Shown here one piece after another: positions 30,888-59,743 of a DNA stretch of 64,000 nucleotides (its first letter is position 1; each line of letters begins with the position of its first letter). Both the position numbers and the translations under genes were made by a program. Below the pieces are notes generated by a model. It was not told the origin of the DNA. It did no database searches and worked only from the letters and a program-made list of their open reading frames with translations. Location: assembly GCA_963693015.1 (NCBI GenBank), contig OY843748.1, positions 3,651,059-3,715,058 of the forward strand, in the 5' to 3' direction. Source of the DNA: a bacterium (GTDB lineage: Bacteria > JAAXHH01).

Positions 30888-31886
30888 TCACGTCCAGGTC
30901 ACCTCCCGCGCTTCGCCGCCGGGGCCGGCCTGCAGAATCGTATCCGCGACGGCGATGGCCTTGATCGCCTCGGTGCCCGGCGAAAGACACGTGACGTCTC
31001 CGCGCACGCAGGAGAGAAAATGCTCCGCCTGGTACGTGTACATGTCAGGTTCGGCCTTCGACTTGATCAGCGTCTGCTCACCCTCCCGGTCGGTGAAACA
31101 GCAGTACTGGTGGGGTTCCGCGTCTTCCGGTTCGGGCAAGTCTCCCGTCCCGAATTGAATAAAGCCCTTCGGTCCGACGATATCATGGAGGCCGTTGCCC
31201 CTTGCCGACCAGCTCCAGGACATGAGCAGCTGGCTGCCATTCCCGTACCGGACGACGGCGGAGCAGGTATCGAGCGCGGAAACCGCCGGATCGAGGTTGA
31301 TCGAGCTGGACAGGACGCGCTCGGGATCTCCGAAGAGGAAATTGGCGAAGTCGTAATTGTGCACGGCGCCGTCCATGAGCGGACCACCGCCGAGACTGTG
31401 GTCCATGAACCACCGGCCGGGGCCGAAACCGGCCATGGCGTTGCGCCAGAGCACGGGCGACCCCAGCTTGCCGGACGCGACATAGGCGCCCCAGGACTTC
31501 CAGTAAGGGTCGAAACGGCGGCAGTGGGCGACCATGAGTACGGTGTTGTTGCGGTCCGCTTCTTCGATCATGCGCCGGCATTCGTCCACCGTGCGGGCCA
31601 TGGGTTTCTCCACCAGCACGGGAATGCCCGCGGCCAGGGCGGTCAACGCCGCGGCGCAGTGGAGGCCCGTGGGGACCGCGATCACGACGGCGTCGACTTC
31701 CCCGCTGTTCACGATGGCTTCGGCGGAGTCGTAAACCCTGGTGCCGGGATAGGTACTCGCGAACTGCTCCCGCATCTCAGGCGACGGGTCGGCGCCCGCG
31801 ACCAGCTTGCAGCCTTCGACGCTGTTGAAGGTCCTGGCCTGATGCGACCCCATGCCGCCGACTCCAATGGAACCCACTCGGATCAT
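30888..31886 (-). CDS. Gfo/Idh/MocA-family NAD(P)-dependent oxidoreductase
   Basis: IRVGSIGVGGMG Rossmann start and the EKP motif (VLVEKPMA). Confidence 0.85.
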   Translation of the reverse strand: MIRVGSIGVGGMGSHQARTFNSVEGCKLVAGADPSPEMREQFASTYPGTRVYDSAEAIVNSGEVDAVVIAVPTGLHCAAALTALAAGIPVLVEKPMARTVDECRRMIEEADRNNTVLMVAHCRRFDPYWKSWGAYVASGKLGSPVLWRNAMAGFGPGRWFMDHSLGGGPLMDGAVHNYDFANFLFGDPERVLSSSINLDPAVSALDTCSAVVRYGNGSQLLMSWSWSARGNGLHDIVGPKGFIQFGTGDLPEPEDAEPHQYCCFTDREGEQTLIKSKAEPDMYTYQAEHFLSCVRGDVTCLSPGTEAIKAIAVADTILQAGPGGEAREVTWT

Positions 31887-32326
31887 GATCCGTCCTTTCG
31901 TGAAATGCCTGGAGGACTACCTGCGCGCTTGCGCTTGCCGCCGATCCGGATTCCACGGCGCAGGCCGTGATCGCCGGCAGGGCGTTTTTGTCGTGGTTGT
32001 AACATTGACGGGGAACTGCTTGTCCAAAACAGTAGATGAATTAACTTGCACTTTGTCAAGTTTTCATGCTTTCAAGTGCTCACGAAAAAGTGAATCATGC
32101 GCTGTTGTTCGCACCAGATTCACCCCCGAACAACAGGAGAGCAAGCCATGTCCAACGAACTGGAGATCCAGGAAGCGAACCTGGCCAAGCAAGAACTGTC
32201 AGACGACGAACGGTTGCAGTTCGACGTGCAGTTCGGTACCCGGCGGAAAGACCCGACCGTTGCCCTCGCGGCCAGGCAGCGCTGCGGTCCGCCTTTTCGC
32301 GAACCGGTTTCGAACCGAATGGCTGC

Positions 32327-32707
32327 CTACCAGGTTGCCGACGCCTTGGGATCCGGTCCGTACCGGTTTTCGCCCCTGGTTCCGTCCAGGATCAGGAACA
32401 CAAGGAGGACGATAACGCCCACGATTGGGATAAACGCGATCAGAACCCACCATCCGCTGCGGTCGGTGTCGTGCAGGCGCCGCACCGCAACGGCCAAACT
32501 GGGTAGGAATAACGCGATGCCGAGAAGCAGGGCCAATACCCCTATTTCGGCTTCTCCCGGTCTCCAGATCGATCCCAGCACCAAGTCGATCACTCCGGAG
32601 ATCAAGTACAAAACTAAGTAGAACAAAGCGAAGCACCAGTACTCCTTCCTCCTCGCCCTTCCGCTAAAAACCGCGTATTTCCTCAGAACTTCCACAAACC
32701 AGTGCAT
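32327..32707 (-). CDS. DUF805 (YhaH-like) inner-membrane protein
   Basis: RARRKEYW ... RRLHDTDRSGWW ... NRYGPDP are signature DUF805 motifs. Confidence 0.8.
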   Translation of the reverse strand: MHWFVEVLRKYAVFSGRARRKEYWCFALFYLVLYLISGVIDLVLGSIWRPGEAEIGVLALLLGIALFLPSLAVAVRRLHDTDRSGWWVLIAFIPIVGVIVLLVFLILDGTRGENRYGPDPKASATW

Positions 32708-36411: not shown

Positions 36412-37650
36412 ATGGAGAAGGCCTTCCTCATGAACTACAACTTCGATCAGCGTATCAATCGCAACGGAACCAATTCGTACAAGTGGGATTACGTGAAACG
36501 GGACGGGGCCGTCGTTCCGTGGGACGAGACCGACGCCAGGCGCCACGAGAAACCCGTGCTTCCGCTCTGGGTGGCGGACATGGACTTTCCGTGCCCGCGG
36601 CCGGTGGTCGACGCGGTGACCGAAATCGCCCGCATGGGCGTTTACGGATACGCCTTCCCGCCGCCCTCCTATTACGATTCCGTGGTGCGGTGGATGAAGC
36701 GGCGCCACGGCTGGACCGTCGATCCCGACACCATCTGCTTCACCCCCGGCATCGTACCCGCCCTGCACATGCTGGTTTCGGCCTATACGAAGCCGGGCGA
36801 CAGGGTGCTGGTCCAGCCCCCGGTGTACTACCCCTTCTTCAACGCCATCGAGAACCTGCAGACGCGCCCGGCGCTGAATCCGCTGCGCTATGAGAACGGC
36901 CGGTACTACATGGATTTCGACGACCTGGAAGCCCAATGCGCCGATCCCGAGGTGAAACTGGCCATCCTGTGCAGCCCGCACAACCCCGTCGGCCGGGTCT
37001 GGTCAGCCGATGAACTGCGCCGTTTCGGCCGGATCTGCATGGACAACGACGTGCTGGTCGTCTCCGATGAAATCCACTGCGACCTGATCCTCGGGGACCA
37101 CACCTTTACGGCCTACGCCACGCTGGGGCCGGAATACGAGGAACGGTCGATCATCTGCACCTCCCCCAGCAAGACCTTCAACCTCGCCGCGCTGCAGGCG
37201 TCGAACATGATGATCCCGGACGCCGATTTGCGGGAGACCTTTCAGCATACCGTCCGCAGCGCCGGCATCTTCACGCTGAACCCCTTCGGCATCGCCGCCG
37301 TCGAAGCCGCCTACGATCACGGCGAGGAATGGCTGGAGCAGTTGCTGGCCTACCTGGAGGGGAATTTCCGGTTTCTCGAGTCCTTCTTCCGCGAGCGCCT
37401 GCCCCGGATAAAGGTCATCGAAACCGAGGGCACCTATCTCGTCTGGGTGGATTTCACGAGCCTGGGCCTGGACAAGGACGCCCTCCAGCGCCTGATGATG
37501 GAGGAGGCGCGCGTCTTCCTCGACGAGGGGTACATCTTCGGCGCGGAGGGCGAGGGCTTCGAGCGGATCAACATCGCCTGCCCCCGGTCGGTCCTCGCCG
37601 AGGCGCTGGAGCGGATCGAGAGGGCGGTGAATGGGCTGAATTCTACATAA
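36412..37650 (+). CDS. MalY/PatB-type PLP-dependent C-S lyase (cystathionine beta-lyase family)
   Basis: NRNGTNSYKWD start motif, SPSKTFNLAALQ PLP-lysine region, and the C-terminal CPRSVLEEALERI typical of PatB/MalY. Confidence 0.8.
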   Translation: MEKAFLMNYNFDQRINRNGTNSYKWDYVKRDGAVVPWDETDARRHEKPVLPLWVADMDFPCPRPVVDAVTEIARMGVYGYAFPPPSYYDSVVRWMKRRHGWTVDPDTICFTPGIVPALHMLVSAYTKPGDRVLVQPPVYYPFFNAIENLQTRPALNPLRYENGRYYMDFDDLEAQCADPEVKLAILCSPHNPVGRVWSADELRRFGRICMDNDVLVVSDEIHCDLILGDHTFTAYATLGPEYEERSIICTSPSKTFNLAALQASNMMIPDADLRETFQHTVRSAGIFTLNPFGIAAVEAAYDHGEEWLEQLLAYLEGNFRFLESFFRERLPRIKVIETEGTYLVWVDFTSLGLDKDALQRLMMEEARVFLDEGYIFGAEGEGFERINIACPRSVLAEALERIERAVNGLNST

Positions 37651-37835
37651 ATGTCCTCTGATGGCCGCCTGAACACCAAGTTGAAGTTCACGTGAGATAA
37701 TACATACCTGATAAACGACGCATTGACATCAAGTAAATCGATACCCAACCGACATGGTAGCAATCCGGCCTACTCCAACCTCTACCGTTTCTATTACTTA
37801 CACCACTTCCATCTGAACCACAGCAGGTAGTCGAA

Positions 37836-40800
37836 ATGCCGAATCACCCATTTAAGTTCAGCAACATACGCCAATGGCGCGGGTCACAGGATCAAGCGTT
37901 CGAGGAACTGTGTTATCAACTACGTGATCCAACGCCTGATAACGCCGAATTGGTCAAGACAGGGAATCCGGACGGTGGTCTGGAGTGGTATGTCACTCTG
38001 AGTAATGGAGTACAGTGGGGATGGCAGGCGAAGTTCATATTCAAAATTGACATGCTTCTTCAACACATGAAGAAATCGCTTGAGACTGTTGTTCAAAAGC
38101 GACCGAAGTGTCGTAGACTGACTTTCTGTATTCCCTTTGATCTCCCAGACGCTCCAGGAGTTAACGAGCGCAAATCAGCCAGGCAGAAATACAAGGATGC
38201 GAAGGAGCGGTGGCGTGAACGAATCCCAGGCGCTGATCGAGTCCGGATTGAACTGTGGTCGGAGGGTGATCTTTTACAGCGACTTGTCCGTAATCCGGCA
38301 CATCGAGGTATTTCATGGTTCTTCTGGGATGAAGAGGTGTTTTCCCCCGAGTGGTGTAAGCAACGCCATTTGAAGGCTGTCAATTCAGCTGGACCGCGCT
38401 ATAGTCCTGAATTGCACATTGATCTACCAGTATCATTTGCGTTTGAGGGTCTTGCACAAACCGAAGACTTTTGGGAAAGATACCGCGCTCGTCGAAATGC
38501 CGTGCTAACTGCCACAGATGATATCAACGTTTCGGGTTACACGGGTATTGGCGTCACGGGAGAGTTAAGGACACTTGTTCAATGTCTTAAAGAGTGGAGA
38601 TTCAAGGTCCCGGAAAGGGTGGGGCTACCGACACGGCTGGACCGGAATTTGTTGGTGGATCTGACGATCACCTGTCTCAAATCCGCCAATGACGCATTTC
38701 CGCAAGATCGCCCTCGTCCAAAACGAAGCGCGGCAACAAAGAAACAAATCCACAACAACGAACGCCGTAATCGACTGAAGCGTTATCTCCACGATTTGCT
38801 CGCTGCCCTGCAAGACTTTGACGATCTGTTACTGAGTAACGCGGCGAAGGCAGCAGACGCCGGATTGATACTTCTTTCGGGGGAGGCTGGACAGGGAAAG
38901 ACACATCTTTATTGTGACGTCAGCAGACGTGCGATCGAAAATGATCAACCAGCCATTCTGATCTTCGGCGGACGCATGTCCGGAAGGCACGTTTGGTCGG
39001 AAGTCGCCGAGCAGCTTGGTCTTGAGCAAGTCGGCTCGGAGTACTTACTAGGTGCGATGCAGGCGGCAGCCGAAGCCTCGAATTCACCGTTTTTGTTGTT
39101 AATCGATGCATTGAACGAGGCCGCTGATCCACACGCTTGGCGAGAGGAACTTCCCGCGCTACTTTCCGAAGTTGATCAGAATCCATGGATTTCGGTTGGT
39201 ATTTCAGTAAGGTCGTCCTACCGTCGGATTGTGCTCCCAGATTCGGGACTTACCGACGTTGCTGAAATCGAACACACTGGATTCAGGGAGCGCGAGATAG
39301 AGGCATCAGAGGTGTTTTTCAGCGCCTTCGAACTTGAGCTGCCGAGAACCCCGAGACTCGAACCTGAGTTTACGAATCCACTGTTTCTAAAGCTCTACTG
39401 TGAAAGTCTGAAAGGTCTGGGTCTAAGCGCTCCACAGGTCGGCGGGGCGCACATGAGTGAGGTTTTCGATTGGTATCTGGAGTGTAAGGAAAGCCAAATT
39501 GTGTCCCGGTTAAAACTCGATCCGGCATCCAGACCTGTAAAGGCTGCGATCAACGCATTTAGCGAAGCGCTTGCGAAAGATAACCGCGACTATCTCGCAC
39601 GCGACCGGTGCGAACAGATAATCAATGGAATCGCTCCCCAACTGTACGAATGGCCAAATACGTTATTCGGGCAATTGCTAAGCGAGGACGTACTAACCAA
39701 AGATGTAACCTGGAAAGGTGAGGAAGCGGTTCGATTTACGTATCAGCGTTTTTCCGACTATAGGGTAGTTTCTACACTCCTAAAGCCATATAACCGTGAT
39801 CAGATTCGTTTAAGGCAAGCATTAAAACCTAGAAATCGCTTAAGAAATCGGGTTTTGAAGGTGCCGCCAGGATGGATCGAGGCGTTGTCCGTACAACTAC
39901 CCGAGCGGTTTAATATCGAACTGTTGGATGCTGCCCGCTGGCACCTCAGATCGTACACTCGTTACCAATGGGATGAAGCGTTCGTACAGAGCATCTCTGT
40001 GCGTCGCCCTTCTGCCGTAACAGAAAGAACTCGTGAAGTGCTCAGTCAAGTACACCGACGCTCTGGACTCAATGAACTCGTGCTCGAAACGGTTCTGACG
40101 GTAGCGCCACAGCCGGAACACCTTCTGAATGCGAAAGCGTTACACAGATGGCTTAAGAGACTGCCAATGCCAACGCGTGACGTGGTTTGGAGTATACCTA
40201 CTTACTTCGAATTTAACCGTGGCGGGGCGCTTGACCGCCTGATTCGTTGGTCGGCCCGGGGACCATACCCGGATTGTCCGGACGAGGCGGTTGAATTGGC
40301 CGCGATTCCTTTGATCTGGACCTTCACGTCGCCAAACCGACGAATGCGGGACTACGTTACCAAATGCCTTTCGTCGCTTCTTTCTGAACGGTTGTCAGTA
40401 CTCCCAGCGCTAATACGGAAATTCGATGGCTGTAACGATCCCTATGTCGTCGAAAGACTTGCCGTGGTCTCTCATGGTGCCGTTCTGAGCGGAGGCATCT
40501 GTAATCCCCAAGCGGCCGTTTCTATAGCTGTAGGACTGAAGAAAGTCGCGTTTGCTGAAGACCAGATCCCCAACATTATCACCAGAGATGCAGTACGAGG
40601 TGTTTACGAATGGTGCATACAACACGGTCTGATTGACGACGCCCAGTATACCTCCGTACAGCCGCCCTATGGATCCGCGCCTCCCAAGACTCCACGTACC
40701 AAGGAACAGCTTGAACGTCAGTACGATCAACAGAGGTATGTAGGTGTGACAGCGAGGTGGCCGTACTCACGGGTTTTCAACTCAGTCTTTTCAGATGACT

Positions 40801-42125
40801 TCAGTTGTTATGTAATCGATTCCAAACTCCGGAATTTCAGTCATGTGTCACTGTCATCTGTAAGGCGAAATCATGGAATAGAAGAGTGGTATCCAGTGAT
40901 GCAGGCCAAGTGCTGGGTATTTGAACGCGTGCTTTCTCTCGGATGGAAGCCTGAGTTGTTCAGCGATTTCGATCGCGATTACGTTGGACATCAGGCAGGA
41001 CGTAGCGAGCACAAAATAGAGCGTTTTGGCAAGAAGTACCAGTGGATGGCTCTCCAGGAGTTGATCGCGCGGGTTGCGGACAACTTTCAAATGACAGAAA
41101 ATATCGACTATCAGGGACCGTGGCAGTTCTTCAGCCGAGACGTCGATCCCACGCTACCCCCTCCCTCTCTTGAACGTATTGAGGATGACAGTTTCAGGTT
41201 GCATTCAACCTTTTCCCCGACCAAAGCGGACCTGTGGTCTCCGCCCGGACCGAGTTATCGTCATAACGACCCGGTGGCAGGAGAAGATTGGGGGACGAAC
41301 ACTGATGATGTACCCGGATTTGAAACACTGATTAGAAATAAGGACGAAGACGGAATCCATTGGGTGGTCTTGCACGCGCACTACAACTGGGATGAAGAAA
41401 TCCCTGAGGGCAAGCACTGGTGGAGCCAGCGTCACCGTAGTTTCTGGTCTCACATTTACAGTTGGCTCGTCCATCCTGCTGATCAGCCAAAGCTTACCCG
41501 GAATCTAAATAGACATTCGTTAAAGGGACGATGGATGCCCGTAGGGCTTGAGCACGCTGACGCAGCATATCTCGGTGAATTGCCATGGGCCAAAGCGGCA
41601 AACTCGCATTCTACAACATCAGATAGGATAAGATGGCCGCATCACCCGATTCAACTCAAACATGACGTCCACCCAACCTGGATCGAGTACCTTTGGGAAG
41701 GTAACGTTCTTGACTGTTCAATAAATGATGGCGTTCACGCTTGGCTACCTACGCCTATCCTATGCACCCAAGCCAAACTCAGATGGCGACCTGGTACTCG
41801 TGAGTGGGTAACGCCTAACGGTACTACAGTGGTCCAGCACTGCGAACGCGAGCGTCACATGGTGTTGTTAGTACGTGAGTCCTGGTTGAAGAGGACAATT
41901 CGACAGACTGGTCATTCTATCGTTTTTGGCTGGCTCGGCGAAAAAAAACTGCTTGAGGCTGGATTTTCTACCGGATTGGTAGGTGATTGGACAGAGATAA
42001 ACGGAATTGCTACGCTGGTAGAAAACCAATGGGATTTTGGGAAACCACGACTGGAAAGACATATAGTCAATCGTCAGGTGGATTCATACGATACCATACA
42101 ACCGGCAGATCATACTTCTGCTTGA
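37836..42125 (+). CDS. STAND-class P-loop NTPase (NACHT-like) with N-terminal PD-(D/E)xK-like domain; candidate antiviral STAND (Avs/bNACHT-like) protein
   Basis: Walker A GEAGQGKTHL (about aa 340) and NACHT-type Walker B LLLIDALNEA (hhhhDxhxE). N-terminal GNPDGGLEWYV...QAKF is consistent with a PD-x(n)-E-x(n)-QxK nuclease core. A roughly 900-aa C-terminal helical region follows. The gene sits in a low-GC insertion. Confidence 0.65.
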   Translation: MPNHPFKFSNIRQWRGSQDQAFEELCYQLRDPTPDNAELVKTGNPDGGLEWYVTLSNGVQWGWQAKFIFKIDMLLQHMKKSLETVVQKRPKCRRLTFCIPFDLPDAPGVNERKSARQKYKDAKERWRERIPGADRVRIELWSEGDLLQRLVRNPAHRGISWFFWDEEVFSPEWCKQRHLKAVNSAGPRYSPELHIDLPVSFAFEGLAQTEDFWERYRARRNAVLTATDDINVSGYTGIGVTGELRTLVQCLKEWRFKVPERVGLPTRLDRNLLVDLTITCLKSANDAFPQDRPRPKRSAATKKQIHNNERRNRLKRYLHDLLAALQDFDDLLLSNAAKAADAGLILLSGEAGQGKTHLYCDVSRRAIENDQPAILIFGGRMSGRHVWSEVAEQLGLEQVGSEYLLGAMQAAAEASNSPFLLLIDALNEAADPHAWREELPALLSEVDQNPWISVGISVRSSYRRIVLPDSGLTDVAEIEHTGFREREIEASEVFFSAFELELPRTPRLEPEFTNPLFLKLYCESLKGLGLSAPQVGGAHMSEVFDWYLECKESQIVSRLKLDPASRPVKAAINAFSEALAKDNRDYLARDRCEQIINGIAPQLYEWPNTLFGQLLSEDVLTKDVTWKGEEAVRFTYQRFSDYRVVSTLLKPYNRDQIRLRQALKPRNRLRNRVLKVPPGWIEALSVQLPERFNIELLDAARWHLRSYTRYQWDEAFVQSISVRRPSAVTERTREVLSQVHRRSGLNELVLETVLTVAPQPEHLLNAKALHRWLKRLPMPTRDVVWSIPTYFEFNRGGALDRLIRWSARGPYPDCPDEAVELAAIPLIWTFTSPNRRMRDYVTKCLSSLLSERLSVLPALIRKFDGCNDPYVVERLAVVSHGAVLSGGICNPQAAVSIAVGLKKVAFAEDQIPNIITRDAVRGVYEWCIQHGLIDDAQYTSVQPPYGSAPPKTPRTKEQLERQYDQQRYVGVTARWPYSRVFNSVFSDDFSCYVIDSKLRNFSHVSLSSVRRNHGIEEWYPVMQAKCWVFERVLSLGWKPELFSDFDRDYVGHQAGRSEHKIERFGKKYQWMALQELIARVADNFQMTENIDYQGPWQFFSRDVDPTLPPPSLERIEDDSFRLHSTFSPTKADLWSPPGPSYRHNDPVAGEDWGTNTDDVPGFETLIRNKDEDGIHWVVLHAHYNWDEEIPEGKHWWSQRHRSFWSHIYSWLVHPADQPKLTRNLNRHSLKGRWMPVGLEHADAAYLGELPWAKAANSHSTTSDRIRWPHHPIQLKHDVHPTWIEYLWEGNVLDCSINDGVHAWLPTPILCTQAKLRWRPGTREWVTPNGTTVVQHCERERHMVLLVRESWLKRTIRQTGHSIVFGWLGEKKLLEAGFSTGLVGDWTEINGIATLVENQWDFGKPRLERHIVNRQVDSYDTIQPADHTSA

Positions 42126-42291
42126 TTGTAAGGGAAAGCAACCGAGAGACTTAGTTCGCTATAAATGATGAAATTGACTTCGAGAATACAATCTCCTCTT
42201 CGACTGAAGAACATAAGACAAAGAAGAAATGCTCCAGCGCAATCTCAGACTTTTTAAAGTACTATCGGGTCTAAAGTAAAGGGGCAGTCCG

Positions 42292-43470
42292 ATGCCATTC
42301 ATAGAACGCCTTCGCTTAGGCGGCCTGCTGTCTTTTCCTCCGGACATGGAGTTCTTCGACTTACGCCCTCTGAACGTCCTGATTGGTCCGAACGCGTCGG
42401 GGAAATCCAACTTCATAGAGGCGCTGGAACTGCTACGGGCCTTGCCTGTGGACTTCGCCGCCGCGATCCGGGACGGCGGCGGTGCGGAAGAGTGGTTGTG
42501 GAAAGGCGATCATCCACCCGCCCCCGCGGCAATAGAAGTGGAAACCGGTCCCGGCATGGAAACCGGTCGACATTTAGAGTATCGTCTGTCGTTCACCGCA
42601 GCGGGCCAGCGGGTCCGGATCCTCGACGAGGCCATCGAAGAGGCGCCTGCACAACAGGCATCCGAGCCGTACTTCCACTACACGTTTCAACAAGGACGCC
42701 CGGTAATCAATGTTCGAACGCCCGGTGGACAAGTATCCGAGAGACAGGTAAAGTGGGATAATCCTTCGCTGGATCAATCCGTTCTTGCACAAAGAAAAGA
42801 CGCTTATCGTTATCCGGAACTTTACTGGCTTGGTTTGCGATTCCAATCGATCCAGACGTTCCGGGAATGGACGTTTGGTCGTTACGGCTCGCTCCGACGG
42901 CCGCAACGAGCCGATCTCCCGGAGAACCGGCTACTTCCCGATTCTGGTAATCTTCCGTTGGTCCTCAACCACATTGAGCATACGACCGGCGTGGTCTTCA
43001 ATGAACATCTGAAACGGTTCTTCCCCCGATTCGAGCGGATGTCCACGTCGATCTCGGGGGGCACCGTGCATTTCTACCTGCACGAATCCGGCTTCGGCAC
43101 GCCGATCCCCGCAACGCGGCTGTCCGACGGCACCATCAGATTCATCGCGCTGCTGGCCACTCTGCTTACCCCGACGCCTCCATCGCTGGTATGCATCGAG
43201 GAACCCGAACTCGGACTGCATCCCGACGCAGTGGCGCTGCTCGCCGACCTGCTGGTTGAAGCCTCCGACCGGATGCAACTCGTGATCACTACGCATTCCG
43301 ATGCCCTGGTGTCGGCGCTGACCAATCAACCAGAGGCCATCGTCGCCTGTGAACGCCCCGGGGCCGCCACCGAGTTGCGCCGCCTCGACGCGGAACGCCT
43401 GGCCGGTTGGCTTGAGAAGTATCAACTAGGCGACCTGTGGCGCATGGGCGAGATCGGGGCAAACCCTTGA
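42292..43470 (+). CDS. AAA_21/ABC-type ATPase (OLD/PtuA/AriA-like defence ATPase family)
   Basis: Walker A LIGPNASGKSNFIEAL, Walker B LVCIEEPELGLHP, and a split ABC ATPase with a long insertion. Confidence 0.75.
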   Translation: MPFIERLRLGGLLSFPPDMEFFDLRPLNVLIGPNASGKSNFIEALELLRALPVDFAAAIRDGGGAEEWLWKGDHPPAPAAIEVETGPGMETGRHLEYRLSFTAAGQRVRILDEAIEEAPAQQASEPYFHYTFQQGRPVINVRTPGGQVSERQVKWDNPSLDQSVLAQRKDAYRYPELYWLGLRFQSIQTFREWTFGRYGSLRRPQRADLPENRLLPDSGNLPLVLNHIEHTTGVVFNEHLKRFFPRFERMSTSISGGTVHFYLHESGFGTPIPATRLSDGTIRFIALLATLLTPTPPSLVCIEEPELGLHPDAVALLADLLVEASDRMQLVITTHSDALVSALTNQPEAIVACERPGAATELRRLDAERLAGWLEKYQLGDLWRMGEIGANP

Positions 43471-44105
43471 GGAGGAGTGTCAGCATCTATCTTGAAGGCG
43501 GAGGCGATACTTCTGGTACGAGGGCGGCGCTCCGCCATGGAATGGATACGTTCCTTCAGCCGCTGAAGCAAGCGGCCAGGGACAAGGCGCTACGTTGGAA
43601 ACTGGTCGCCTGCGGTACGCGCAGGGAAGCTTACAAAGGGTTTCGAAACGCTATACACGATCTTGAAAGAGATGAGGTCGTCGTCTTACTGGTGGACGCG
43701 GAAGGACCGGTAAACCGGTCGGCGTCCGAACACCTGCGAAACCGCGATGGTTGGGATTTCAGCCTTGCTTCAGACTACGGGGTTCAACCTGACGACGTGG
43801 TACATCTTATGGTGGAGACGATGGAAACCTGGATCGTGGCGGATCCGCACACGTTAGGCGTTTACTACGGCCAGGGATTCAGGACAAATGCACTACCCAA
43901 AGCGCAGAACCTTGAAACCGTTACCAGGATTGATGTCGCGCACAGTTTGAAGGAGGCGACAAGGCAGACCCGGAAAGGATCATATCACAAGATCAAACAC
44001 GCGAGCGACCTTTTGCGGCGGATCGACGTGGAAAAAGTAAAGCGACGCTGTCGTCACTGCCGGTTGCTGTTCGAGAGACTCGGGCCACTGGTCGACGCGG
44101 CCTGA
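43437..44105 (+). CDS. DUF4276-family protein (partner of AAA_21 ATPases)
   Basis: SIYLEGGGD near the N-terminus matches the family (i-hVEG..D signature). The more likely start is the TTG at 43467, overlapping the ATPase stop (TTGA), which suggests translational coupling. Confidence 0.6.
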   Translation: MAHGRDRGKPLRRSVSIYLEGGGDTSGTRAALRHGMDTFLQPLKQAARDKALRWKLVACGTRREAYKGFRNAIHDLERDEVVVLLVDAEGPVNRSASEHLRNRDGWDFSLASDYGVQPDDVVHLMVETMETWIVADPHTLGVYYGQGFRTNALPKAQNLETVTRIDVAHSLKEATRQTRKGSYHKIKHASDLLRRIDVEKVKRRCRHCRLLFERLGPLVDAA

Positions 44106-44372
44106 AATCCTGGATCAGGGGGCTTTGGTACCGTCAGCAGGTCGGCGCGGGCCAAGTCCAAAGTGAACGTGTTCCGAAGTCGTTTTCTCCTGCATCCTGT
44201 CGCCCGCCTCATGTTTGCTTCCACTTCGGATCGTGCAGCCCCCGTTGTCACACGGTGTCACACAACCGGGAAGGTCGGATGGATGGGCGGAAACCCCCGT
44301 TTCCGTCACTTTGATGACGATCAGGCACTGGCTCATGATCCTTGCCCCTTCGCAATCTGCTGAAAACGTTAC

Positions 44373-44399
44373 TTGACCATCCGCGATTTCATCTATAAT
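44373..44399 (+). promoter_or_regulatory. sigma70-like promoter candidate (TTGACC - 15 nt - TATAAT) upstream of the halogenase/RiPP operon
   Basis: Perfect -10 hexamer 37 nt upstream of ATG 44436. The RBS AAAGGA is 8 nt before the start. The spacer is short (15 nt). Confidence 0.4.
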
Positions 44400-44435
44400 T
44401 AGAAAAACTGACCGATACCTGCGAAAGGACGTGGG

Positions 44436-45716
44436 ATGATACGGCCGGGCGCTGAATCGTTGCGGAAGATCGCGGTCATCGGACAGGGAACCGCGGGCTC
44501 CCTGGCGGCCGCCAGTGTAACGCGTCTTCTCTCCGACGACGACCACGAACTGCATCACATCTACGACTCGCGCATTCCGGTCATCGGCGTGGGCGAAGGC
44601 AGTTGGCCGAGTCTGGTACAGGAACTGCACCAGCTGACGAATCTGCCCCACGCAACCGTCCAGCGGCGCTTGAACGGAACCCGCAAGTACGGCGTCGCAT
44701 TCGAGGGATGGGGGTGCCGCAGCCGGGATTTCACCCACTACTTCACGCCGCAACAGGTATCCTATGCCTACCATTTGTCCGCCGACGTGCTGGCGGAGCT
44801 GTTGCGCGAAAGCACGCGCGCGCGCCACGTCGACGCGAACGTGCGCGACATCAAAACCCTGGAGGACGGCGCGCAAGTCGAGTTCGACGGCCGGGCGCCG
44901 GAACGCTACGACCTGGTCTTCGATGCGCGCGGATTCCCGAAAGAACTCCATCCCGACCGGCACATCGACATTTCCTTCATTCCCACCAATACGGCCGTCA
45001 TCCGGCGCTGCCCGGCCGTCATCGCGGAAGAGCGGGACGGGCCGGTCGTGAAGCATACCTACACCCGTGCCGTTGCACGTCCCCACGGCTGGATATTCGT
45101 CATTCCGCTGACGGTGCACACCTCCTACGGGTACATCTTCAACCGCGATATATCCAGCCTCGAAGAAGTCGAATCGGACTTCGACGCCTTCCTTGAAGCC
45201 GATGGCGTGCCGGAATTCGAGCAGCGCGCCGTCATTCCGTTTCCCAACTTCATCCATCGCCGGATCTACGATGGCGCCGTGGCCCGCGTTGGCAACGCGG
45301 CGGCCTTCATGGAGCCCCTGGAGGCCACGGCGATCGTATCTGCCCAGCTGCAAATCGGGATGGTGTTGCAGACGCGTCTGAACCGGCCGGCAGAGCATCT
45401 CGCGCCCGACGCGCCGGTGGTCAACCGGTTTCTCGTCGACAACATGCTCTGCTACGGCCTGTTCGTCGGCTGGCACTATTGCCGTGGCTCCAGGTACGAC
45501 ACCACGTTCTGGCGTCACGCCCGAAACGACGTGTGGCCCCGTCACCGCGACGCGGCAGCGCCCGAGGCGGTGGATTGCGCCGCACTCGGCAAATTCGATG
45601 GGATGTTCGAGCTACTGAATCAACCGGTCATCGACAAATCGGATTGGGACCGGATGTGCGCGGTACCGCTTACCAGCTACGCCCAGGTGTCCCAGGGGCT
45701 GGGCTGCCAAAAGTGA
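44436..45716 (+). CDS. flavin-dependent halogenase (tryptophan-halogenase family, PF04820-like)
   Basis: N-terminal KIAVIGQGTAGSLAA (GxGxxG) and the GWIFVIPL motif (the WxWxIP signature of FADH2-dependent halogenases). Size is about 426 aa. Confidence 0.8.
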   Translation: MIRPGAESLRKIAVIGQGTAGSLAAASVTRLLSDDDHELHHIYDSRIPVIGVGEGSWPSLVQELHQLTNLPHATVQRRLNGTRKYGVAFEGWGCRSRDFTHYFTPQQVSYAYHLSADVLAELLRESTRARHVDANVRDIKTLEDGAQVEFDGRAPERYDLVFDARGFPKELHPDRHIDISFIPTNTAVIRRCPAVIAEERDGPVVKHTYTRAVARPHGWIFVIPLTVHTSYGYIFNRDISSLEEVESDFDAFLEADGVPEFEQRAVIPFPNFIHRRIYDGAVARVGNAAAFMEPLEATAIVSAQLQIGMVLQTRLNRPAEHLAPDAPVVNRFLVDNMLCYGLFVGWHYCRGSRYDTTFWRHARNDVWPRHRDAAAPEAVDCAALGKFDGMFELLNQPVIDKSDWDRMCAVPLTSYAQVSQGLGCQK

Positions 45717-45809
45717 CATTACTTGATTCGGGATGCGTATAACTTCATATTATATATCTAAATAAAGTAGTTTTGACTTGCTCGACAACCGGGAGGCATT
45801 GCTACAGTC

Positions 45810-46514
45810 GTGTTCAACAATCCATTAAACTCATTCCATGATACCGTTGCCGAAGCGAAGGAAGAGCGGGAACAGCTCGACCGGTTGCTGACGATTTCCA
45901 CGCCGCGGGAGCGTCTGCTCGTCGTCGCGATCGCGGTTGTGCTGTGCGTCACGCTGGCATGGCTTTTCTATGGCAGCGTAGCGCATAGTATTGCGGTGGA
46001 CGGCGTACTGTCCGCATCCGGGCTAGTCGAAGCCCCGTCCGGTCAAGTCGAAGTCCCGGCCGAGCGGGGCGAAAACGGGTCCGTTCAAGTCGAAGCCCCT
46101 GCCGGGCAAGGCGAAAAATCGACCGTTCAAGTCGAAGCCCCTGCCGGGCAAGGCGAAAAATCGACCGTTCAAGTCGAAGCCCCGGCCGAAGGCAGCCGGT
46201 CCGTGCAGGCCCTCGCCTGGATCGACGGCGGTATCGCGCCGCAGATCGAAGCCGGGATGCCGGTGGTGATCGAGCCGGATCCGGCAGATGGAGAACCCGG
46301 CGCGCTGGGCGGAACGGTCCGGGCGATCTCCGCCGTGCCCTTTGCCGGGGCGCTGGCGGCCTTCGAATCCGGGGCGCCGGCGTCCGTGCACCGTATCGAT
46401 ATCGCCCTCGAAGAGAGTCTTGATCCGGATTCCCTTGCGGGCAGGAAATGCCGGATCGTCATCGAGCTGGGCAGGCAATCTCCGATCACGCTGTTTCGAA
46501 TGAGGCGGCCATAG
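45810..46514 (+). CDS. HlyD-like membrane-fusion/secretion protein, unusually short (NHLM bacteriocin-system type)
   Basis: Cytoplasmic N-terminus, a single TM (LLVVAIAVVLCVTLAWLFYG) and a C-terminal beta-rich region. The coiled-coil region is replaced by VQVEAPAGQGEKST repeats. Start is a GTG. Confidence 0.55.
   Translation: MFNNPLNSFHDTVAEAKEEREQLDRLLTISTPRERLLVVAIAVVLCVTLAWLFYGSVAHSIAVDGVLSASGLVEAPSGQVEVPAERGENGSVQVEAPAGQGEKSTVQVEAPAGQGEKSTVQVEAPAEGSRSVQALAWIDGGIAPQIEAGMPVVIEPDPADGEPGALGGTVRAISAVPFAGALAAFESGAPASVHRIDIALEESLDPDSLAGRKCRIVIELGRQSPITLFRMRRP
46039..46206. repeat. 42-bp tandem repeat x4 (two perfect copies) encoding (S)VQVEAPAGQGEKST
   Basis: Seen directly. Perfect copies are 46081-46122 and 46123-46164. 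Confidence 0.85.
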
Positions 46515-46588
46515 GATGTCGAAGCGCATATCCACGGCCAGGCGTCGAAGCGCCAGGTCCTCCAGAACTCGAATGAGGCAACCATAGG

Positions 46589-48802
46589 ATGTCGACGAGC
46601 ACCTCCAGGGGAGCCAGAGGCAAGGCCTCCTCGGATAAATCAGACCAGCGGGTAACCACGCCGATTCTGTTGCAGATGCACGCTTCAGAATGCGGCGCCG
46701 CCTGTCTGGGCATCGTACTGGCCCACTTCGGGAGATGGGTACCGCTTACCGAACTGCGCGAGAAATGCGAGGTGAGCCGGGACGGCAGCAGCGCCGCAAG
46801 CATCCTGCGTGCCTCCAGGCACTATGGGCTCGAATGCAACGGGCTCAGCGTACGCGTCGATCAACTGCACATGCTGCCGTTGCCCCTGATCCTGTTCTGG
46901 CAGTTCAGCCATTTCGTCGTCCTCGAGGGATTCGATGGCCGTAACTTCTACCTCAACGACCCTGCCACGGGACGCCGCCGCCTTTCCGCCGAAGAGTTCG
47001 AGTCGGGCTACAGCGGCATAGCGCTTCGCTTCAAGCGCGGCAAAGACTTCGAGTCCGGTGGCGAGCAGCCCGACTTGTTCCGGCAACTGGGCGCCTTGCT
47101 CGCCGGATCGTGGAGATCGCTTGCCGGGGTGTTTGCCTGCGGACTCATGTTGACGTTGCTGACGCTGATCATTCCCGCGTCGATCGGTGCCTTCGTCGAC
47201 GACGTCATGGAAACGCAAGGGGCCTGGGGCGGTTTGGTGACCGCCCTGCTTGGCGGCGGCGCCCTGGTATACGTCCTTTCCCTGCTCAAGAACCGGTTCC
47301 TCAAGCGGCTCGCGGTCAGGGTGTCGGTGACCGGCTACAGCCGCGGGATGTCGCGGCTGCTGCGGTTGCCGGTGGAGTTTTTCGAACACAGGCTGACGGG
47401 CGATCTGACCGACCGGGTCTCGTCCACCGACCGGATCGCGAAGAACCTGGCGGACCAGTTCCTGGTGCTCATCATCGACGTGGCCATGAGCCTGGTGTTC
47501 CTCGCGGCGATGTTCGCCTTCGACGTCCTGCTCACGCTGATCGTGCTTTTGCTGGCGCTGCTGCACGGTCTGCTGGCCCACTTCCTCAACGCCCTTCGGG
47601 CCGTTCGAAGTCAGGCGATGCGGCGCGAGCAGGGACTGCTGATCGGCCTCGGCATGCAGATGCTGAGTCACGCCGACAATCTGCGCATGACGGGCGCGGA
47701 CGATCGGTTTTTCTCGCGCTGGAGCGGTCAACAGGCCCGCGAACTGCGCGCGCGCCAGCTCTATGCCGAACTGGGCGCCGTCAATACCTCGCTTCCGGGC
47801 CTGGTCGACGCCCTGCGCAGCGCGGCGATACTCGCCATCGGCGGCAGCATGGTCCTGAACGGAGCCATGACCCTGGGGACGCTGGTCGCCTTCTACATCC
47901 TGGCGGAGATGTTCCTGACGCCCGTCGAGCGCTTCCTGGCCTTCGCCGAAAACCGCCAGGCGCTCGAAACCGATCTGCAACGACTCGAGGACGTCTCCAG
48001 GACCGATGAAGATCCCGTTTTCAGCCGCAGAAGCCAGGAGTCGGAATCGGTCCCCACGTTCAACGGCCGGCTCCAACTCGCGGGCCAGCTCGAACTGCGG
48101 AACGTCACCTTCGGTTTCAACAGGAGCCGGCCGCCCCTGATAAAGGACTTCAACCTCGTGATCAAGCCGGGACAGCGGGTCGCCGTGGTCGGTCCCAGCG
48201 GTTCCGGCAAGTCGACGCTGGCGCGGCTGGTTTCGGGGGTCTATCAGCCCTGGTCGGGCGAAATCCTGTTCGACGAGGGCCATCTGCGGGATCAGATCCC
48301 GGAGGAAGTGCTGCGGCAGTCCATATCCATGGTGGATCAGGAGGTCGTGCTCTTCTCCGCGTCCCTGCGCGACAATATCACGCTGTGGAACCCGGCCGTT
48401 CCGGATGAAGTCCTCTTCGCCGCGACGCGGGACGCCCGGATCCACGACGAAATCCTGGTCAGACCGCAGGGATACGCGTCCCTCGTCGAAGAAGGCGGGG
48501 CGAATTTCAGCGGCGGCCAGCGGCAACGGCTGGAAATCGCCCGCGCGCTGGTGGGGAACCCGACGGTGCTCATTCTGGACGAGGCCACCAGCGCCCTCGA
48601 TGCCGCGACGGAGGAATACGTCGACGATGCCCTGCGGCGTCGCGGCGTCACCTGCCTGATCGTGGCGCACCGGCTGAGCACCGTGCGGGACTGCGATGAG
48701 ATCATCGTGCTCGACAAAGGCGCCACCGTGCAACGCGGCACGCACGACGAGTTGATCGCGGATCGGAACGGCGCCTACTACAACCTGGTCAGATCGAACT
48801 GA
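46589..48802 (+). CDS. peptidase-C39 domain ABC exporter (double-glycine leader-cleaving bacteriocin/RiPP transporter)
   Basis: N-terminal QMHASECGAACLGIVL (C39 catalytic Cys) and HFVVLEGFDG (His). Six TM helices, Walker A GPSGSGKST and signature LSGGQRQRLEIARAL. Confidence 0.85.
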   Translation: MSTSTSRGARGKASSDKSDQRVTTPILLQMHASECGAACLGIVLAHFGRWVPLTELREKCEVSRDGSSAASILRASRHYGLECNGLSVRVDQLHMLPLPLILFWQFSHFVVLEGFDGRNFYLNDPATGRRRLSAEEFESGYSGIALRFKRGKDFESGGEQPDLFRQLGALLAGSWRSLAGVFACGLMLTLLTLIIPASIGAFVDDVMETQGAWGGLVTALLGGGALVYVLSLLKNRFLKRLAVRVSVTGYSRGMSRLLRLPVEFFEHRLTGDLTDRVSSTDRIAKNLADQFLVLIIDVAMSLVFLAAMFAFDVLLTLIVLLLALLHGLLAHFLNALRAVRSQAMRREQGLLIGLGMQMLSHADNLRMTGADDRFFSRWSGQQARELRARQLYAELGAVNTSLPGLVDALRSAAILAIGGSMVLNGAMTLGTLVAFYILAEMFLTPVERFLAFAENRQALETDLQRLEDVSRTDEDPVFSRRSQESESVPTFNGRLQLAGQLELRNVTFGFNRSRPPLIKDFNLVIKPGQRVAVVGPSGSGKSTLARLVSGVYQPWSGEILFDEGHLRDQIPEEVLRQSISMVDQEVVLFSASLRDNITLWNPAVPDEVLFAATRDARIHDEILVRPQGYASLVEEGGANFSGGQRQRLEIARALVGNPTVLILDEATSALDAATEEYVDDALRRRGVTCLIVAHRLSTVRDCDEIIVLDKGATVQRGTHDELIADRNGAYYNLVRSN

Positions 48803-48830
48803 CGCGGCAAACGGAGCCGGAATACAGACC

Positions 48831-51797: not shown

Positions 51798-51851
51798 TCC
51801 GATTACGAGGATGACGGCCTGGCGGCAAACGCGCGCCTTCGGCCCGGACCC

Positions 51852-53168
51852 GTGAAAACGGAGTGGAAAACGATGAAGAAGCCCTTTGACGTGACGGGTT
51901 ACCTGCAGTCGCGTGCCGACGACGACCACGACTTCCGGGAACGTCTTCTCGCCAGGCCCAGGGAAACCATCGAAGAGGAATTCGGCGTGACGATGGCCAG
52001 AGACCATGAGATTCACGTCCACGAAGAATCCTATGCTTCGACGCACGTTGTCCTGCCGCCGCGTAGCAAATACACCAAGGCGGAACAGGAAGAAGCGAGA
52101 ACCGGCGCGGCCTCGCTCGAGTTCCTTCGCAAGACGATGTCCGATCCCGCGCCGCCCCTGCGTCCGCCCGCGGGTGAAGGGGAAAGCGTTTCCGGATTCT
52201 CCGGTACCCCCGAGGCGCTTGCAGACGCGGCCAGAGAGCGCATCCGCCGCGGCCTCGTCTTCCTGGAATCCGCCATAGACGAAAGGGGCGCCTGGCACTG
52301 TATCCGATTCAACGTGGGCGACCCGAATATCCCGCGGCATTTCGAAAGACCCGCCTTCATATCGGCTTACTGCGTCCTTGCCCTGGAGTATTGCCGGGAG
52401 GCGCGGGCCCGGTCCATCTGCGCCGCGGCCAGGGCGTATCTTGCCGACACCATCGAATACCCCGGATTCTGGCGCTATTACCGCCATCTGCCCCAGGATC
52501 TCGACAGCACCACGCTTTCTTCGCTTGTGATTGGAACGCACCCCTGGATCCTGCTGGAGCGAAACGTTCCGCGGATACTGGCGAATCGCGACGGGGAAGG
52601 CCGTTTCATGACCTGGGTGCTGACGGAAGACGAACCCGACGTCGTGTCGCGCTTTCGCATCGAAGCCGACCCCGTCGTCAATGCGAACGTCATCGCCTAT
52701 CTCGGCGACCGCCCGGAAACCAGGGAAGCGCAGCGATGGCTGGAAGCGCTGGTAGCCGAAGGCGATCTCGCGGGGTCGTCCAAATGGTATCCCGACGAGG
52801 TGGCCATCTACTATGCGATCGCCCGCGCCATGGGTCGCGCCGAGCCCGCGCTGAGTGGCCTGCGCCCGGTACTCGCGGACCGTGTCCTCGGCTTGCAGGA
52901 CGACAGTGGAGATTTCGGCAACGTCCTTCAGACCGCCCAGGCCGTGTCGGTGCTCCACGAAGTCGGACGCCTTGACCGCATCGACGCGAAACGCCAGGCG
53001 GAAAGACTCTTATGTTCCCAGCGCGAGGACGGCAGCTGGCCGGAACTCCTCGCCTTTGGAGACCAATCGTTGAAGTGGGGCGCAGTAGGACAGATCGGAC
53101 ACGGATCCGAAGCCGTGACCTCTGCGTTCTGTATCGAAGCGCTCGAGCGCCTCGTCACGTACCTGTGA
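51852..53168 (+). CDS. NHLP-type leader domain fused to prenyltransferase/terpene-cyclase-like alpha/alpha-toroid domain
   Basis: Residues 20-70 (DHDFRERLLARPRETIEEEFGVTMARDHEIHVHEESYASTHVVLPP) align position-by-position with the precursor at 59393-59644 and with the NHLP consensus. The C-terminal 350 aa carry QxxDGSW-like repeats (QREDGSWPE, LQDDSGDFGN, NRDGEGRF). Confidence 0.6.
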   Translation: MKTEWKTMKKPFDVTGYLQSRADDDHDFRERLLARPRETIEEEFGVTMARDHEIHVHEESYASTHVVLPPRSKYTKAEQEEARTGAASLEFLRKTMSDPAPPLRPPAGEGESVSGFSGTPEALADAARERIRRGLVFLESAIDERGAWHCIRFNVGDPNIPRHFERPAFISAYCVLALEYCREARARSICAAARAYLADTIEYPGFWRYYRHLPQDLDSTTLSSLVIGTHPWILLERNVPRILANRDGEGRFMTWVLTEDEPDVVSRFRIEADPVVNANVIAYLGDRPETREAQRWLEALVAEGDLAGSSKWYPDEVAIYYAIARAMGRAEPALSGLRPVLADRVLGLQDDSGDFGNVLQTAQAVSVLHEVGRLDRIDAKRQAERLLCSQREDGSWPELLAFGDQSLKWGAVGQIGHGSEAVTSAFCIEALERLVTYL

Positions 53169-53253
53169 ACGTGAATCCTGCCGGTCCGGGAATCCCGCGA
53201 CGAGATAACTTCCCGCGTAGGTGTTCGATTATGCTTACTAAGGAGGTGTTACC

Positions 53254-58139: not shown

Positions 58140-58148
58140 GGAGGCGGA

Positions 58149-59267: not shown

Positions 59268-59298
59268 GCGCTTCAAGCGCAACTTCGGGAACCCGACG

Positions 59299-59337
59299 CA
59301 AAAATCCCCCCGACCAGGTTGATCGGAGGGATTTTTT
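59299..59337. terminator. bidirectional Rho-independent terminator (GC stem flanked by A-tract and T-tract)
   Basis: gcaaaaatcccccc-gaccaggttgatc-ggagggatttttt. It lies between the convergent genes ending at 59267 (+) and 59393 (-). Confidence 0.6.
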
Positions 59338-59392
59338 GACCTGCTCAATCATGCGAACGCCGGGCGTCCGCATGCGAACCGGTGTCTCTGGC

Positions 59393-59644
59393 CTACCAGC
59401 AGCAGCAAAGGCCGGCAGAAACGGCTTCGAGTTGCTCCTCGGTGATATTCGGATCCGGGGGCAACGCGATGTGCACCGTCTGCATATCGCTTTCGTGGAC
59501 CTGGATCGTCATCGATTCAGGCATCGTAATGTCCAACTCCTCGCAAATGACCGACTTCGGATCTGCGATCAATTTCTGCCTGAAATCTGCGTCCAGGGCG
59601 GACTTGTCCACAATCTGCTTCAGCATTTCGTCGCCACTTCTCAT
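59393..59644 (-). CDS. NHLP (nitrile-hydratase leader peptide) family RiPP precursor; predicted core LCCCW
   Basis: MRSGDEMLKQIVDKSALDADFRQKLIADPKSVICEELDITMPESMTIQVHESDMQTVHIALPPDPNITEEQLEAVSAG-LCCCW. The leader matches the NHLP consensus (DxxFRxxLxxDPxxxxxEELxxxxPExxxIxVHExxxxxxHIxLPP ... LExVxAG). Strong RBS AGGGAGG 6 nt upstream, and ATG start. Confidence 0.8.
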   Translation of the reverse strand: MRSGDEMLKQIVDKSALDADFRQKLIADPKSVICEELDITMPESMTIQVHESDMQTVHIALPPDPNITEEQLEAVSAGLCCCW

Positions 59645-59672
59645 GATTCAACCTCCCTTGTCTGGCAACATG

Positions 59673-59690
59673 GCCAAGGCAGCCCTTGGC
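59673..59690. promoter_or_regulatory. inverted repeat GCCAAGG-CAGC-CCTTGGC upstream of the precursor gene
   Basis: Perfect 7-bp arms with a 4-bp spacer, about 30 nt upstream of the precursor start on the minus strand. Candidate operator. Confidence 0.3.
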
Positions 59691-59743
59691 AACAATGACA
59701 AAATAGTACTTAATCAATATATGTCATTTTCGCCGAAAAGTCA

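Follow-up and report, generated by a model that had tools for sequence, protein, structure and literature searches.

The described systems closest to the locus analysed here are the antiphage sensors EcAvs2 of Escherichia coli and KpAvs2 of Klebsiella pneumoniae. EcAvs2 assembles on the terminase ATPase domain as a C4 tetramer, and eight of its residues are reported to contact the terminase or bridging ATP; a helical extension lies between its effector and its ATPase, and the N-terminal effector itself is uncharacterised (PMC13601566). KpAvs2 joins an Mrr nuclease to a STAND NTPase and a sensor, and degrades DNA when triggered (PMC11564622). Here we describe a further member of this family, carried by a 4.6-kb block of low GC content within a 64,000-nucleotide (nt) stretch of contig OY843748.1 (assembly GCA_963693015.1, positions 3,651,059 to 3,715,058), which we call the window. 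The original prediction, made from the letters of this stretch, had taken the block for a recent horizontal acquisition. This was not supported, as the junction of the block occurs in three species, one of them (locus L017) carries an Avs2 pseudogene, and the GC content at third codon positions (GC3) is stationary. We consider it probable that the block is instead an Avs2 cassette exposed by deletion of a Hma island, with old alleles that recombine and a stationary GC content of about 50%.

The gene is Avs2 (AVAST type 2) and belongs, as an ordinary case, to a known defence family. It matches the PADLOC Avs2 model PDLC02164 (E = 0, 1133 bits) and, over its full length, PDLC02162 (E = 4.4e-212, residues 6-1374 of 1429), while the Pfam matches are weak (NACHT E = 3e-4, AAA_22 E = 7e-5). 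EcAvs2 (PDB 9o4e) is the sole solved relative (E = 1.2e-125, residues 169-1374). It aligns in two parts, and the sensor end is the more divergent, with 96 bits over about 357 residues (1018-1374) compared with 326 bits over about 845 (169-1013). The Walker A motif (residues 349-356) and the core Walker B motif (LLLID, residues 420-424) are both intact. Five of the eight EcAvs2 contact residues are kept (D981, R1132, W1266, E1362 and E1444), in an alignment that is locally uncertain around residues 1126-1133. Compared with the closest copy, the rate of non-synonymous divergence (dN) is 0.102 and that of synonymous divergence (dS) 0.54, a ratio of about 0.19, which indicates that the gene is under purifying selection.

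A low-GC block and its junctions

The block at 37651-42290 has a GC content of 0.502, compared with 0.636 for the rest of the window. Its z-score is -7.8 against 487 windows of 4.29 kb taken outside 37651-44400 (mean 0.636, sd 0.016, minimum 0.596). The value of about 50% first proposed for the block was therefore accurate (50.2%), whereas the proposed background of about 68% was too high: the measured value is 63.6%, and 70% is reached only in the 34-36 kb stretch immediately upstream. The abrupt drop placed near 37650 and the return near 42290 agree with change points by cumulative skew at 37627 and 42419. In 400-nt windows, GC falls from 0.63-0.64 up to 37599 to 0.48-0.54 across about 37600-42400. 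On the right the recovery is incomplete, with 0.555-0.585 at 42200-43199 and 0.535-0.58 at 43400-44599; values of up to 0.64 are found at 43000-43599, and GC stays at or above 0.62 only from about 44400.

Other features read from the letters alone were also borne out. AT-rich trinucleotides are 2.6-4.8 times commoner in the block than outside (AAA 19.0 versus 7.2 per kb, TTA 9.1 versus 2.2 per kb), and codons that are rare in the host (below 3 per 1000 in a set of ten neighbouring host genes) make up 14.8% of the Avs2 codons compared with 2.0% in those host genes. The block starts right after the gene of a MalY-type lyase, whose stop lies at 37650 and is followed by the Avs2 start after 185 nt, and a single long open reading frame (ORF) of 1429 codons at 37836-42125 on the plus strand accounts for the giant STAND NTPase gene. 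An AT-rich upstream region of its own is present as well: the spacer at 37651-37835 has a GC content of 0.459 and includes a conserved leader common to Avs2 loci. The ORF has a GC content of 0.508 and a GC3 of 0.501, and both leader (0.46) and trailer (0.40) lie below it; GC3 is intermediate in the adjoining HEC-01 pair (0.66 and 0.62) and 0.80-0.87 in the flanking genes. In its z-score and host-rare codons the block thus has the atypical composition of a genomic island, and it is, as proposed, accessory DNA with a defence gene as cargo, namely Avs2. Neither a consensus sigma-70 promoter in the leader nor a terminator behind the gene was detected; an Rfam scan of 37-45 kb gave no match, and a consensus fold of the leader gave neither covariation nor conserved RNA structure.

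To place the block in relatives, we relied on loci (numbered with the prefix L) from related genomes. A search with the lyase protein returned 20 orthologous loci (77-92% identity), in metagenome-assembled genomes (MAGs) labelled Gemmatimonadota or Latescibacterota; the isolate names APA, IRC and Plut presumably point to a sponge or coral origin of several of them. Close Avs2 homologues (67-84% amino acid identity) are found in L081/L082, L083, L084, L085, L093 and L094. In L081, L083, L085 and L093 a Hma island ends in hmaC (DUF499) and Avs2, with exactly 147 nt from the hmaC stop codon to the start of Avs2; in L094 the genes are ordered alike but lie further apart, and in the more distant L090 Avs2 sits between hmaB and the remaining island. 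The islands of L083, L085 and L094 also hold methylase and AAA_21 ATPase genes, with an AAA_21+DUF4276 pair in L083 and L085.

In the window, tblastn with the DUF499 and DUF1156 proteins of these relatives detected no Hma core gene. What is present is a short relic of hmaC: in the four loci with the 147-nt spacing, the DUF499 ORF ends in the aligned AAGTTGAAG...TGA (stop at L083:9854). Homology among all copies begins about 18 nt before the hmaC stop and runs unbroken into the Avs2 leader. An alignment of the upstream regions of five loci, including the relic and flanks, has a mean column identity of 75%, whatever the upstream gene. To the left of the relic, 37651-37677 is conserved with L084 and L017, and the junction of lyase, hmaC relic and leader is common to the window, L084 and L017. 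Window and L084 align over 249 columns with 87% mean column identity, in a segment made up of the final 30 nt of the lyase gene, the whole spacer and the opening 25 nt of Avs2. In L017 the leader is joined to about codon 1290 of Avs2, and the internally deleted, frameshifted remnant is a pseudogene. On the right, the segment at 42179-42291 is 89% identical to L001:11374-11492, which there precedes HEC-01A without Avs2; the same segment lies behind Avs2 in L084 and, ahead of a Fic gene, in L083. It is tempting to speculate that this AT-rich segment may provide a shared promoter/terminator region, or a joint at which modules are exchanged by recombination. The boundaries were taken from L084, L017, L001 and the hmaC loci. 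An alignment of the empty-site intergenic regions had also been tried as a source of insertion edges and was rejected, being too diverged between species for base-level boundaries.

The simplest history of the arrangement would start from an ancestral state like that of the relatives, with Avs2 at the end of a Hma island. The lineage of the window would then have lost, by deletion, the Hma genes from the lyase to near the end of hmaC, so that the last 18 nt of hmaC now adjoin the post-lyase sequence and precede Avs2 and the HEC-01 pair. We infer the order of the deletion events. Such a deletion upstream of Avs2 would explain the arrangement better than the insertion of a 4.6-kb unit. As far as the loci compared can tell, the cassette and its junction predate the split of several species.

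Age of the cassette and exchange of its alleles

If a 4.6-kb single-gene island had recently been inserted from a low-GC donor, the low GC content would be the donor's signature, not yet ameliorated. The composition of the block (GC 0.50 versus 0.636, z = -7.8), the codon usage of Avs2, foreign to the host, and the patchy occurrence among related species, with the three closest by lyase sequence lacking Avs2, would all fit such an import, and Avs2 has been described as extensively horizontally transferred (PMC13601566). The relatives speak against it, and we regard it as very unlikely. The junction with the hmaC relic is not private to this genome: it recurs in three species, including the decayed pseudogene of the outgroup L017. 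Seven copies of the clade have a GC content of 0.48-0.52 and a GC3 of 0.44-0.51, in flanking DNA of 0.57-0.63 (about 0.62-0.63 outside defence islands), and they are separated from each other by dS of 0.36-1.2. The divergence of the window copy from three of them (dS 0.54-0.83) is about as large as that of the flanking host genes (0.31-0.65): 0.54 versus 0.35-0.56 for L081, 0.72 versus 0.31-0.48 for L083 and 0.83 versus 0.49-0.65 for L084.

The direction of change within the lineage gives the same answer. Synonymous third-position changes were polarised by parsimony on four terminal branches and pooled. For Avs2, changes from A or T to G or C (W-to-S) affect 113 of 880 sites and the reverse changes (S-to-W) 120 of 985, a balance that implies an equilibrium GC3 of 0.51. 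For the lyase and NHL genes of the same genomes, the counts are 66 of 387 and 251 of 4586, and the implied equilibrium is 0.76. Thus, 49% of the Avs2 changes are W-to-S, compared with 74% expected at host rates (binomial p = 5e-16), and the composition shows no drift toward that of the host. The physically linked hmaC, 147 nt upstream in relatives, is GC-rich (GC3 0.63-0.79) at comparable dS, and the nearest Avs2 homologues outside the clade (59-62% identity) have a GC3 of 0.61-0.65, above that of the clade. Taken together, the balanced changes, the GC-rich hmaC and the GC3 of these outside homologues argue that the low GC content is specific to the gene and stationary, and not a decaying donor signature.

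The searches for a donor or vehicle point the same way. Scanning a metagenome collection with Avs2 gave only three distant loci (31-36% identity), a viral collection gave no match, and tblastn against plasmids and phages returned only distant matches of at most 34% identity, so that no close homologue, donor or vehicle was found in these collections. Flanking direct repeats or an integrase, which the original prediction had proposed looking for, were not found either. Matches among flanking direct and inverted repeats are at chance level (12-24 nt), and the 64-kb window contains no tRNA gene. Of transposases there is a single trace, an IS5/DUF772 remnant some 17.7 kb beyond the Avs2 stop.

A sharp block would also arise if DNA from a lower-GC organism had been chimerically joined into the contig during assembly or binning, and the source is an uncultured lineage known from MAGs. 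However, the lyase/Avs2 junction is also found in the independent assemblies of L084 (Logan SRR26713612) and L017 (OZ253560.1), from other samples, the Avs2/HEC-01A junction recurs in L084, and junctions of Avs2 with SSF and with hmaC, among host-like genes, are seen in L081-L083. This recurrence in independent assemblies excludes an assembly chimera for all practical purposes.

A different question is why the composition is stable. We could speculate that selection keeps the gene AT-rich, either because rare codons throttle a dangerous nuclease or because AT-rich DNA allows a repression of the xenogeneic-silencing type until infection. The implied equilibrium GC3 of about 0.51 compared with 0.76 for host genes of the same genomes, an S-to-W rate 2.2-fold above that of host genes (p = 1e-12), the 14.8% of host-rare codons and the still more AT-rich leader (0.46) and trailer (0.40) would all be in line with this idea, as would the fact that the clade is more AT-rich than the homologues outside it and than intergenic DNA (0.59, a crude estimate). 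However, the analysis identified neither a silencer nor another regulatory element, the HEC-01 genes occupy only a middle position (implied equilibrium GC3 0.43-0.63), and a gene that simply escapes codon-usage selection or GC-biased gene conversion, under mutation biased to AT, should look the same. We therefore treat selection for AT-richness as an unlikely explanation. In its broader form, an Avs2 allele pool held at about 50% GC by selection, and so resisting or reversing amelioration in genomes of 63% GC, is likewise a doubtful proposition. If it were true, AT-richness and rare codons would help to keep a self-toxic immune sensor at a low, safe level of expression, and if it were also general, the low GC content of defence genes would reflect function and not time since transfer. 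Drift to a neutral GC content was considered as a full explanation and found insufficient, since the intergenic GC (0.59) exceeds the GC3 of Avs2 (0.50).

The cassette is old, and its alleles are exchanged between related genomes. The clearest case of sensor-allele replacement beside a conserved neighbour, as judged from pairwise divergence, is that of L085 and L094, two co-occurring Hma islands from one sample (ERZ25069412): hmaC is 94% identical at the amino acid level (dS 0.19), whereas Avs2 is 67% identical (dS 1.05). Identity between Avs2 copies varies between domains in a mosaic pattern. The remnant in L017 is nearest to the L083 allele (84% nt identity), though L017 is the outgroup by host genes, and the window shares its deletion junction with L084 while its gene body is nearer to L081. 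The mosaic identity, the contrast between L085 and L094, and the discordant positions of L017 and L084 indicate that Avs2 alleles have been swapped by recombination within the hotspot. The source of any recent replacement in the window genome would be the AT-rich allele pool of the same lineage.

Several points weigh against an old cassette of stationary composition and against its reading as a typical Avs2. L001, L002 and L047, the nearest relatives of the window by lyase sequence, have no Avs2, and this allele may have arrived in this genome recently by recombination. The host tree comprises two genes and is poorly resolved, and both dS by the Nei-Gojobori method (NG86) and polarisation by parsimony are crude under strong compositional bias. 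The intergenic GC of the window, also a crude estimate, is 0.59 and thus above the Avs2 GC3 of 0.50. As for the protein, its score against the NCBIfam Avs2 equivalog NF041813 is 820.3 bits (residues 183-1009), below the curated cut-off of 1000, which is consistent with its divergent sensor end and different effector. Of the eight EcAvs2 contact residues, T1128, R1130 and E1364 are replaced by H, A and N, respectively, and terminase sensing, tetramerisation and nuclease activity are predictions from homology only.

The surrounding defence hotspot

The lyase gene is, by comparison of the orthologous loci, the conserved left anchor of a hotspot and lies outside the cassette. In nine species (L003, L005, L007, L010-L013, L015 and L047) the site is empty, and the halogenase gene follows the lyase after 241-350 nt. 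An SSF transporter gene comes directly after the lyase in L008 and L018 (probably also in L004), after a HEC-01A-like ATPase ORF in L016 and after the Avs2 remnant in L017. L001 has HEC-01A without Avs2, and L009 and L054 carry a 984-residue TPR protein followed by HEC-01. The HmaA SNF2 helicase of an island comes directly after the lyase in L014, which also encodes a TIR/ThsB-like protein, and in L006 it follows a 984-residue TPR ORF and two small ORFs; Fic genes are found in L001 and L083. This varied cargo and the empty sites after the lyase identify the site as a defence hotspot. The original prediction had suggested looking for an empty site between the lyase and the DUF4276 pair: empty sites exist in the nine species with the lyase/halogenase arrangement, while absence of Avs2 alone is seen only in L001. 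The features of the locus are collected in Table 1.

Table 1. Features of the Avs2 locus and its surroundings, with positions in the window
Feature	Position	Strand	Properties
PLP-dependent C-S lyase/aminotransferase (MalY-like)	36412..37650	+	Pfam Aminotran_1_2 E = 2.8e-38; GC3 0.87
Backbone-type intergenic sequence after lyase stop	37651..37677	+	CTGATGGCCGCCTGAACACC; resembles empty-site post-lyase sequence, e.g. L003 CACTGGCCGCCCGTTCGACC
hmaC (DUF499) relic, last codons and stop	37678..37695	+	18 nt, AAGTTGAAGTTCACGTGA
AT-rich Avs2 leader (promoter/5' untranslated region)	37696..37835	+	about 140 nt; aligns in 5/5 loci compared
Avs2 gene	37836..42125	+	1429 residues; PADLOC, PDB 9o4e and NCBIfam matches
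Avs2 domains (approximate)			PD-(D/E)xK nuclease (predicted) 1-160; helical extension 170-330; STAND NTPase 331-700; TPR-like and C-terminal sensor 701-1429
Predicted nuclease catalytic motif	37971..38033	+	D46 (NPDGGLE), E50, Q64-A-K66 (WGWQAKF)
Walker A	38880..38903	+	G349-EAGQGK-T356; aligns with EcAvs2 GKAGIGKS; nearly invariant in 58 homologues
Walker B region	39090..39119	+	F419-LLLIDALNE428; aligns with EcAvs2 VLVFIDAINE; nearly invariant in 58 homologues
Conserved block of about 100 nt, right edge of Avs2 module and HEC-01 upstream region	42179..42291	+	core TTCGACTGAA
HEC-01A, ABC-type AAA_21 ATPase	42292..43470	+	PADLOC E = 8.1e-151; Pfam AAA_21 E = 1.3e-38
HEC-01B, DUF4276	43437..44105	+	PADLOC E = 3.6e-66; Pfam DUF4276 E = 7.7e-22
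FAD-dependent halogenase	44436..45716	+	Pfam Trp_halogenase E = 4.8e-46; outside cassette
Truncated IS5-type transposase	59817-60308	-	DUF772 E = 6.9e-20; 163 residues; local GC dip 0.54

The HEC-01 pair next to Avs2 is a neighbouring candidate defence module of the same hotspot. Both of its genes are present and their ORFs overlap by 34 nt; orthologues of HEC-01A with 86-90% identity occur in L001, L009, L054 and L084. In L001, HEC-01A is intact and HEC-01B is reduced by an internal deletion to two fragments (residues 1-33 and 185-222, at L001:12629-12835), followed by a Fic/SoFic-like gene on the opposite strand.

The window has the SSF gene, with its neighbours, at 60570-63999, and the whole interval of 37.65-60.5 kb is thus variable relative to the SSF-type species. 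This interval includes a native-GC halogenase/YcaO/ABC cluster. At 44436-59700, this cluster resembles those of ribosomally synthesised and post-translationally modified peptides (RiPPs), with the FAD halogenase, a HlyD-like protein, two ABC exporters (one with a C39 peptidase), an NHase_alpha-like protein of 438 residues, an FA_desaturase/GlnE-like protein, a YcaO cyclodehydratase and a protein of 372 residues. Since it is absent in L008, L016, L017 and L018, and probably in L004, the cluster is itself accessory. An ORF of 83 codons at 59393-59644 on the minus strand, ending in ...TEEQLEAVSAGLCCCW, resembles by eye a precursor of the nitrile-hydratase-leader type (NHLP) and is a candidate substrate of the adjacent YcaO and halogenase enzymes. 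The IS5-type remnant sits where the 23-kb variable interval ends on the right, immediately ahead of the conserved SSF gene.

About 165 nt of non-coding sequence between HEC-01B and the halogenase (44194-44359) match L017:11852-12007 with 79% identity, including long stretches without a mismatch; L017 is the most divergent relative, and the counterpart there sits after the Avs2 pseudogene. This block occurs once in the window, matched nothing in Rfam and, on either strand, is predicted to be no more structured than expected. Minor GC dips to 0.55-0.57 also occur at 18455-19660 (minus strand), in the gene of a trypsin-like peptidase with a collagen-repeat N-terminus, and at 31850-32620, among small ORFs without a Pfam match.

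The Avs2 protein and its relation to known systems

Residues 1-168 of the protein do not align with EcAvs2, and this N-terminal region has no sequence match in Pfam or the PDB. A structure model by AlphaFold2 (AF2; mean predicted local distance difference test score, pLDDT, 75.6, and 80-95 across residues 51-140) has an alpha-beta-beta-beta-alpha-beta core: helix 18-29, strands 38-42, 50-54 and 60-65, helix 71-88 and strand 92-98. In this model D46 lies just before strand 2 and the QxK motif at the end of strand 3; D46, E50, Q64 and K66 are invariant in 58 homologues. Fold comparison gave several matches, each weak, namely Avs4 (8dgf), LlaBIII (4xqk), Cap4 (6vm6/6vm5), EndoMS, SfsA and PaqCI, the last three being PD-(D/E)xK proteins. 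The modelled fold and motif suggest that the N-terminus is a PD-(D/E)xK nuclease of the Mrr/Cap4-like kind, with the activity predicted. The model also places a helical region at residues 171-329, between effector and ATPase.

By homology to EcAvs2 and KpAvs2, we propose that the C-terminal TPR/CTD sensor would recognise a protein of the phage, with the large-terminase ATPase domain as the likeliest target. Together with ATP, the central STAND NTPase would then tetramerise and gather four N-terminal nuclease domains, and the gathered nucleases would degrade DNA and abort the infection.

The gene thus represents a well-described kind of antiphage sensor, to which an uncultured, presumably sponge- or coral-associated symbiont adds a member and no new mechanism. 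What makes the locus instructive is its composition, as a sharp low-GC defence block mimics a textbook case of recent acquisition and the comparative data say otherwise. Since a stationary composition is found beside a host-like gene 147 nt away, low GC content should not serve as a clock for defence genes. The stable, gene-specific AT-richness is the one feature worth pursuing, and the locus offers a concrete case for asking why immune genes stay AT-rich. It also illustrates how a Hma island can decay into orphan embedded systems.

The amelioration model of horizontally acquired DNA, developed by Lawrence and Ochman, provides the usual frame for classical genomic islands. The block resembles such islands in its atypical composition and codon usage, its patchy occurrence and its defence cargo; it differs from them and from the model in having no tRNA, integrase or direct repeats and in showing no drift to host GC despite a dS of 0.5-1. 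HEC-01, a PADLOC candidate two-gene system of an AAA_21 ATPase and a DUF4276 protein, is present as a complete pair adjoining Avs2, and we take 'HEC' to stand for 'Hma-embedded candidate'. In relatives, Avs2 and AAA_21+DUF4276 pairs are found inside or ending Hma islands, although the two members of the window pair share only 31% and 21% identity with their counterparts within the L083 island. The Hma system itself consists of the helicase HmaA, the methylase HmaB and the DUF499 ATPase HmaC (PMC8565338, PMC12839542), and the window differs from it in having none of the three.

Among the Avs proteins, SeAvs3 and EcAvs4 (PDB 8DGC, 8DGF) have other sensor families and targets; in a PDB sequence search, the NTPase and sensor matched Avs2 only, and no other entry. 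KpAvs2, which has by description an Mrr-family endonuclease, a STAND NTPase and a long Avs2-type sensor, and whose DNA degradation once activated is non-specific, is part of an operon with two more genes, one with a radical-SAM domain, and also senses the non-terminase proteins Ksap1/2 (PMC11564622); the window locus has no such genes. The effector of EcAvs2 is unrelated to the predicted PD-(D/E)xK nuclease at residues 1-168, the window sensor is far more divergent than the core, and T1128, R1130 and E1364 are not kept. In its helical extension, STAND NTPase, TPR region and C-terminal sensor, however, the protein is homologous to EcAvs2 (PDB 9o4e; PMC13601566), and it shares with it the Walker A and B motifs and, as far as the locally uncertain alignment shows, five contact residues.

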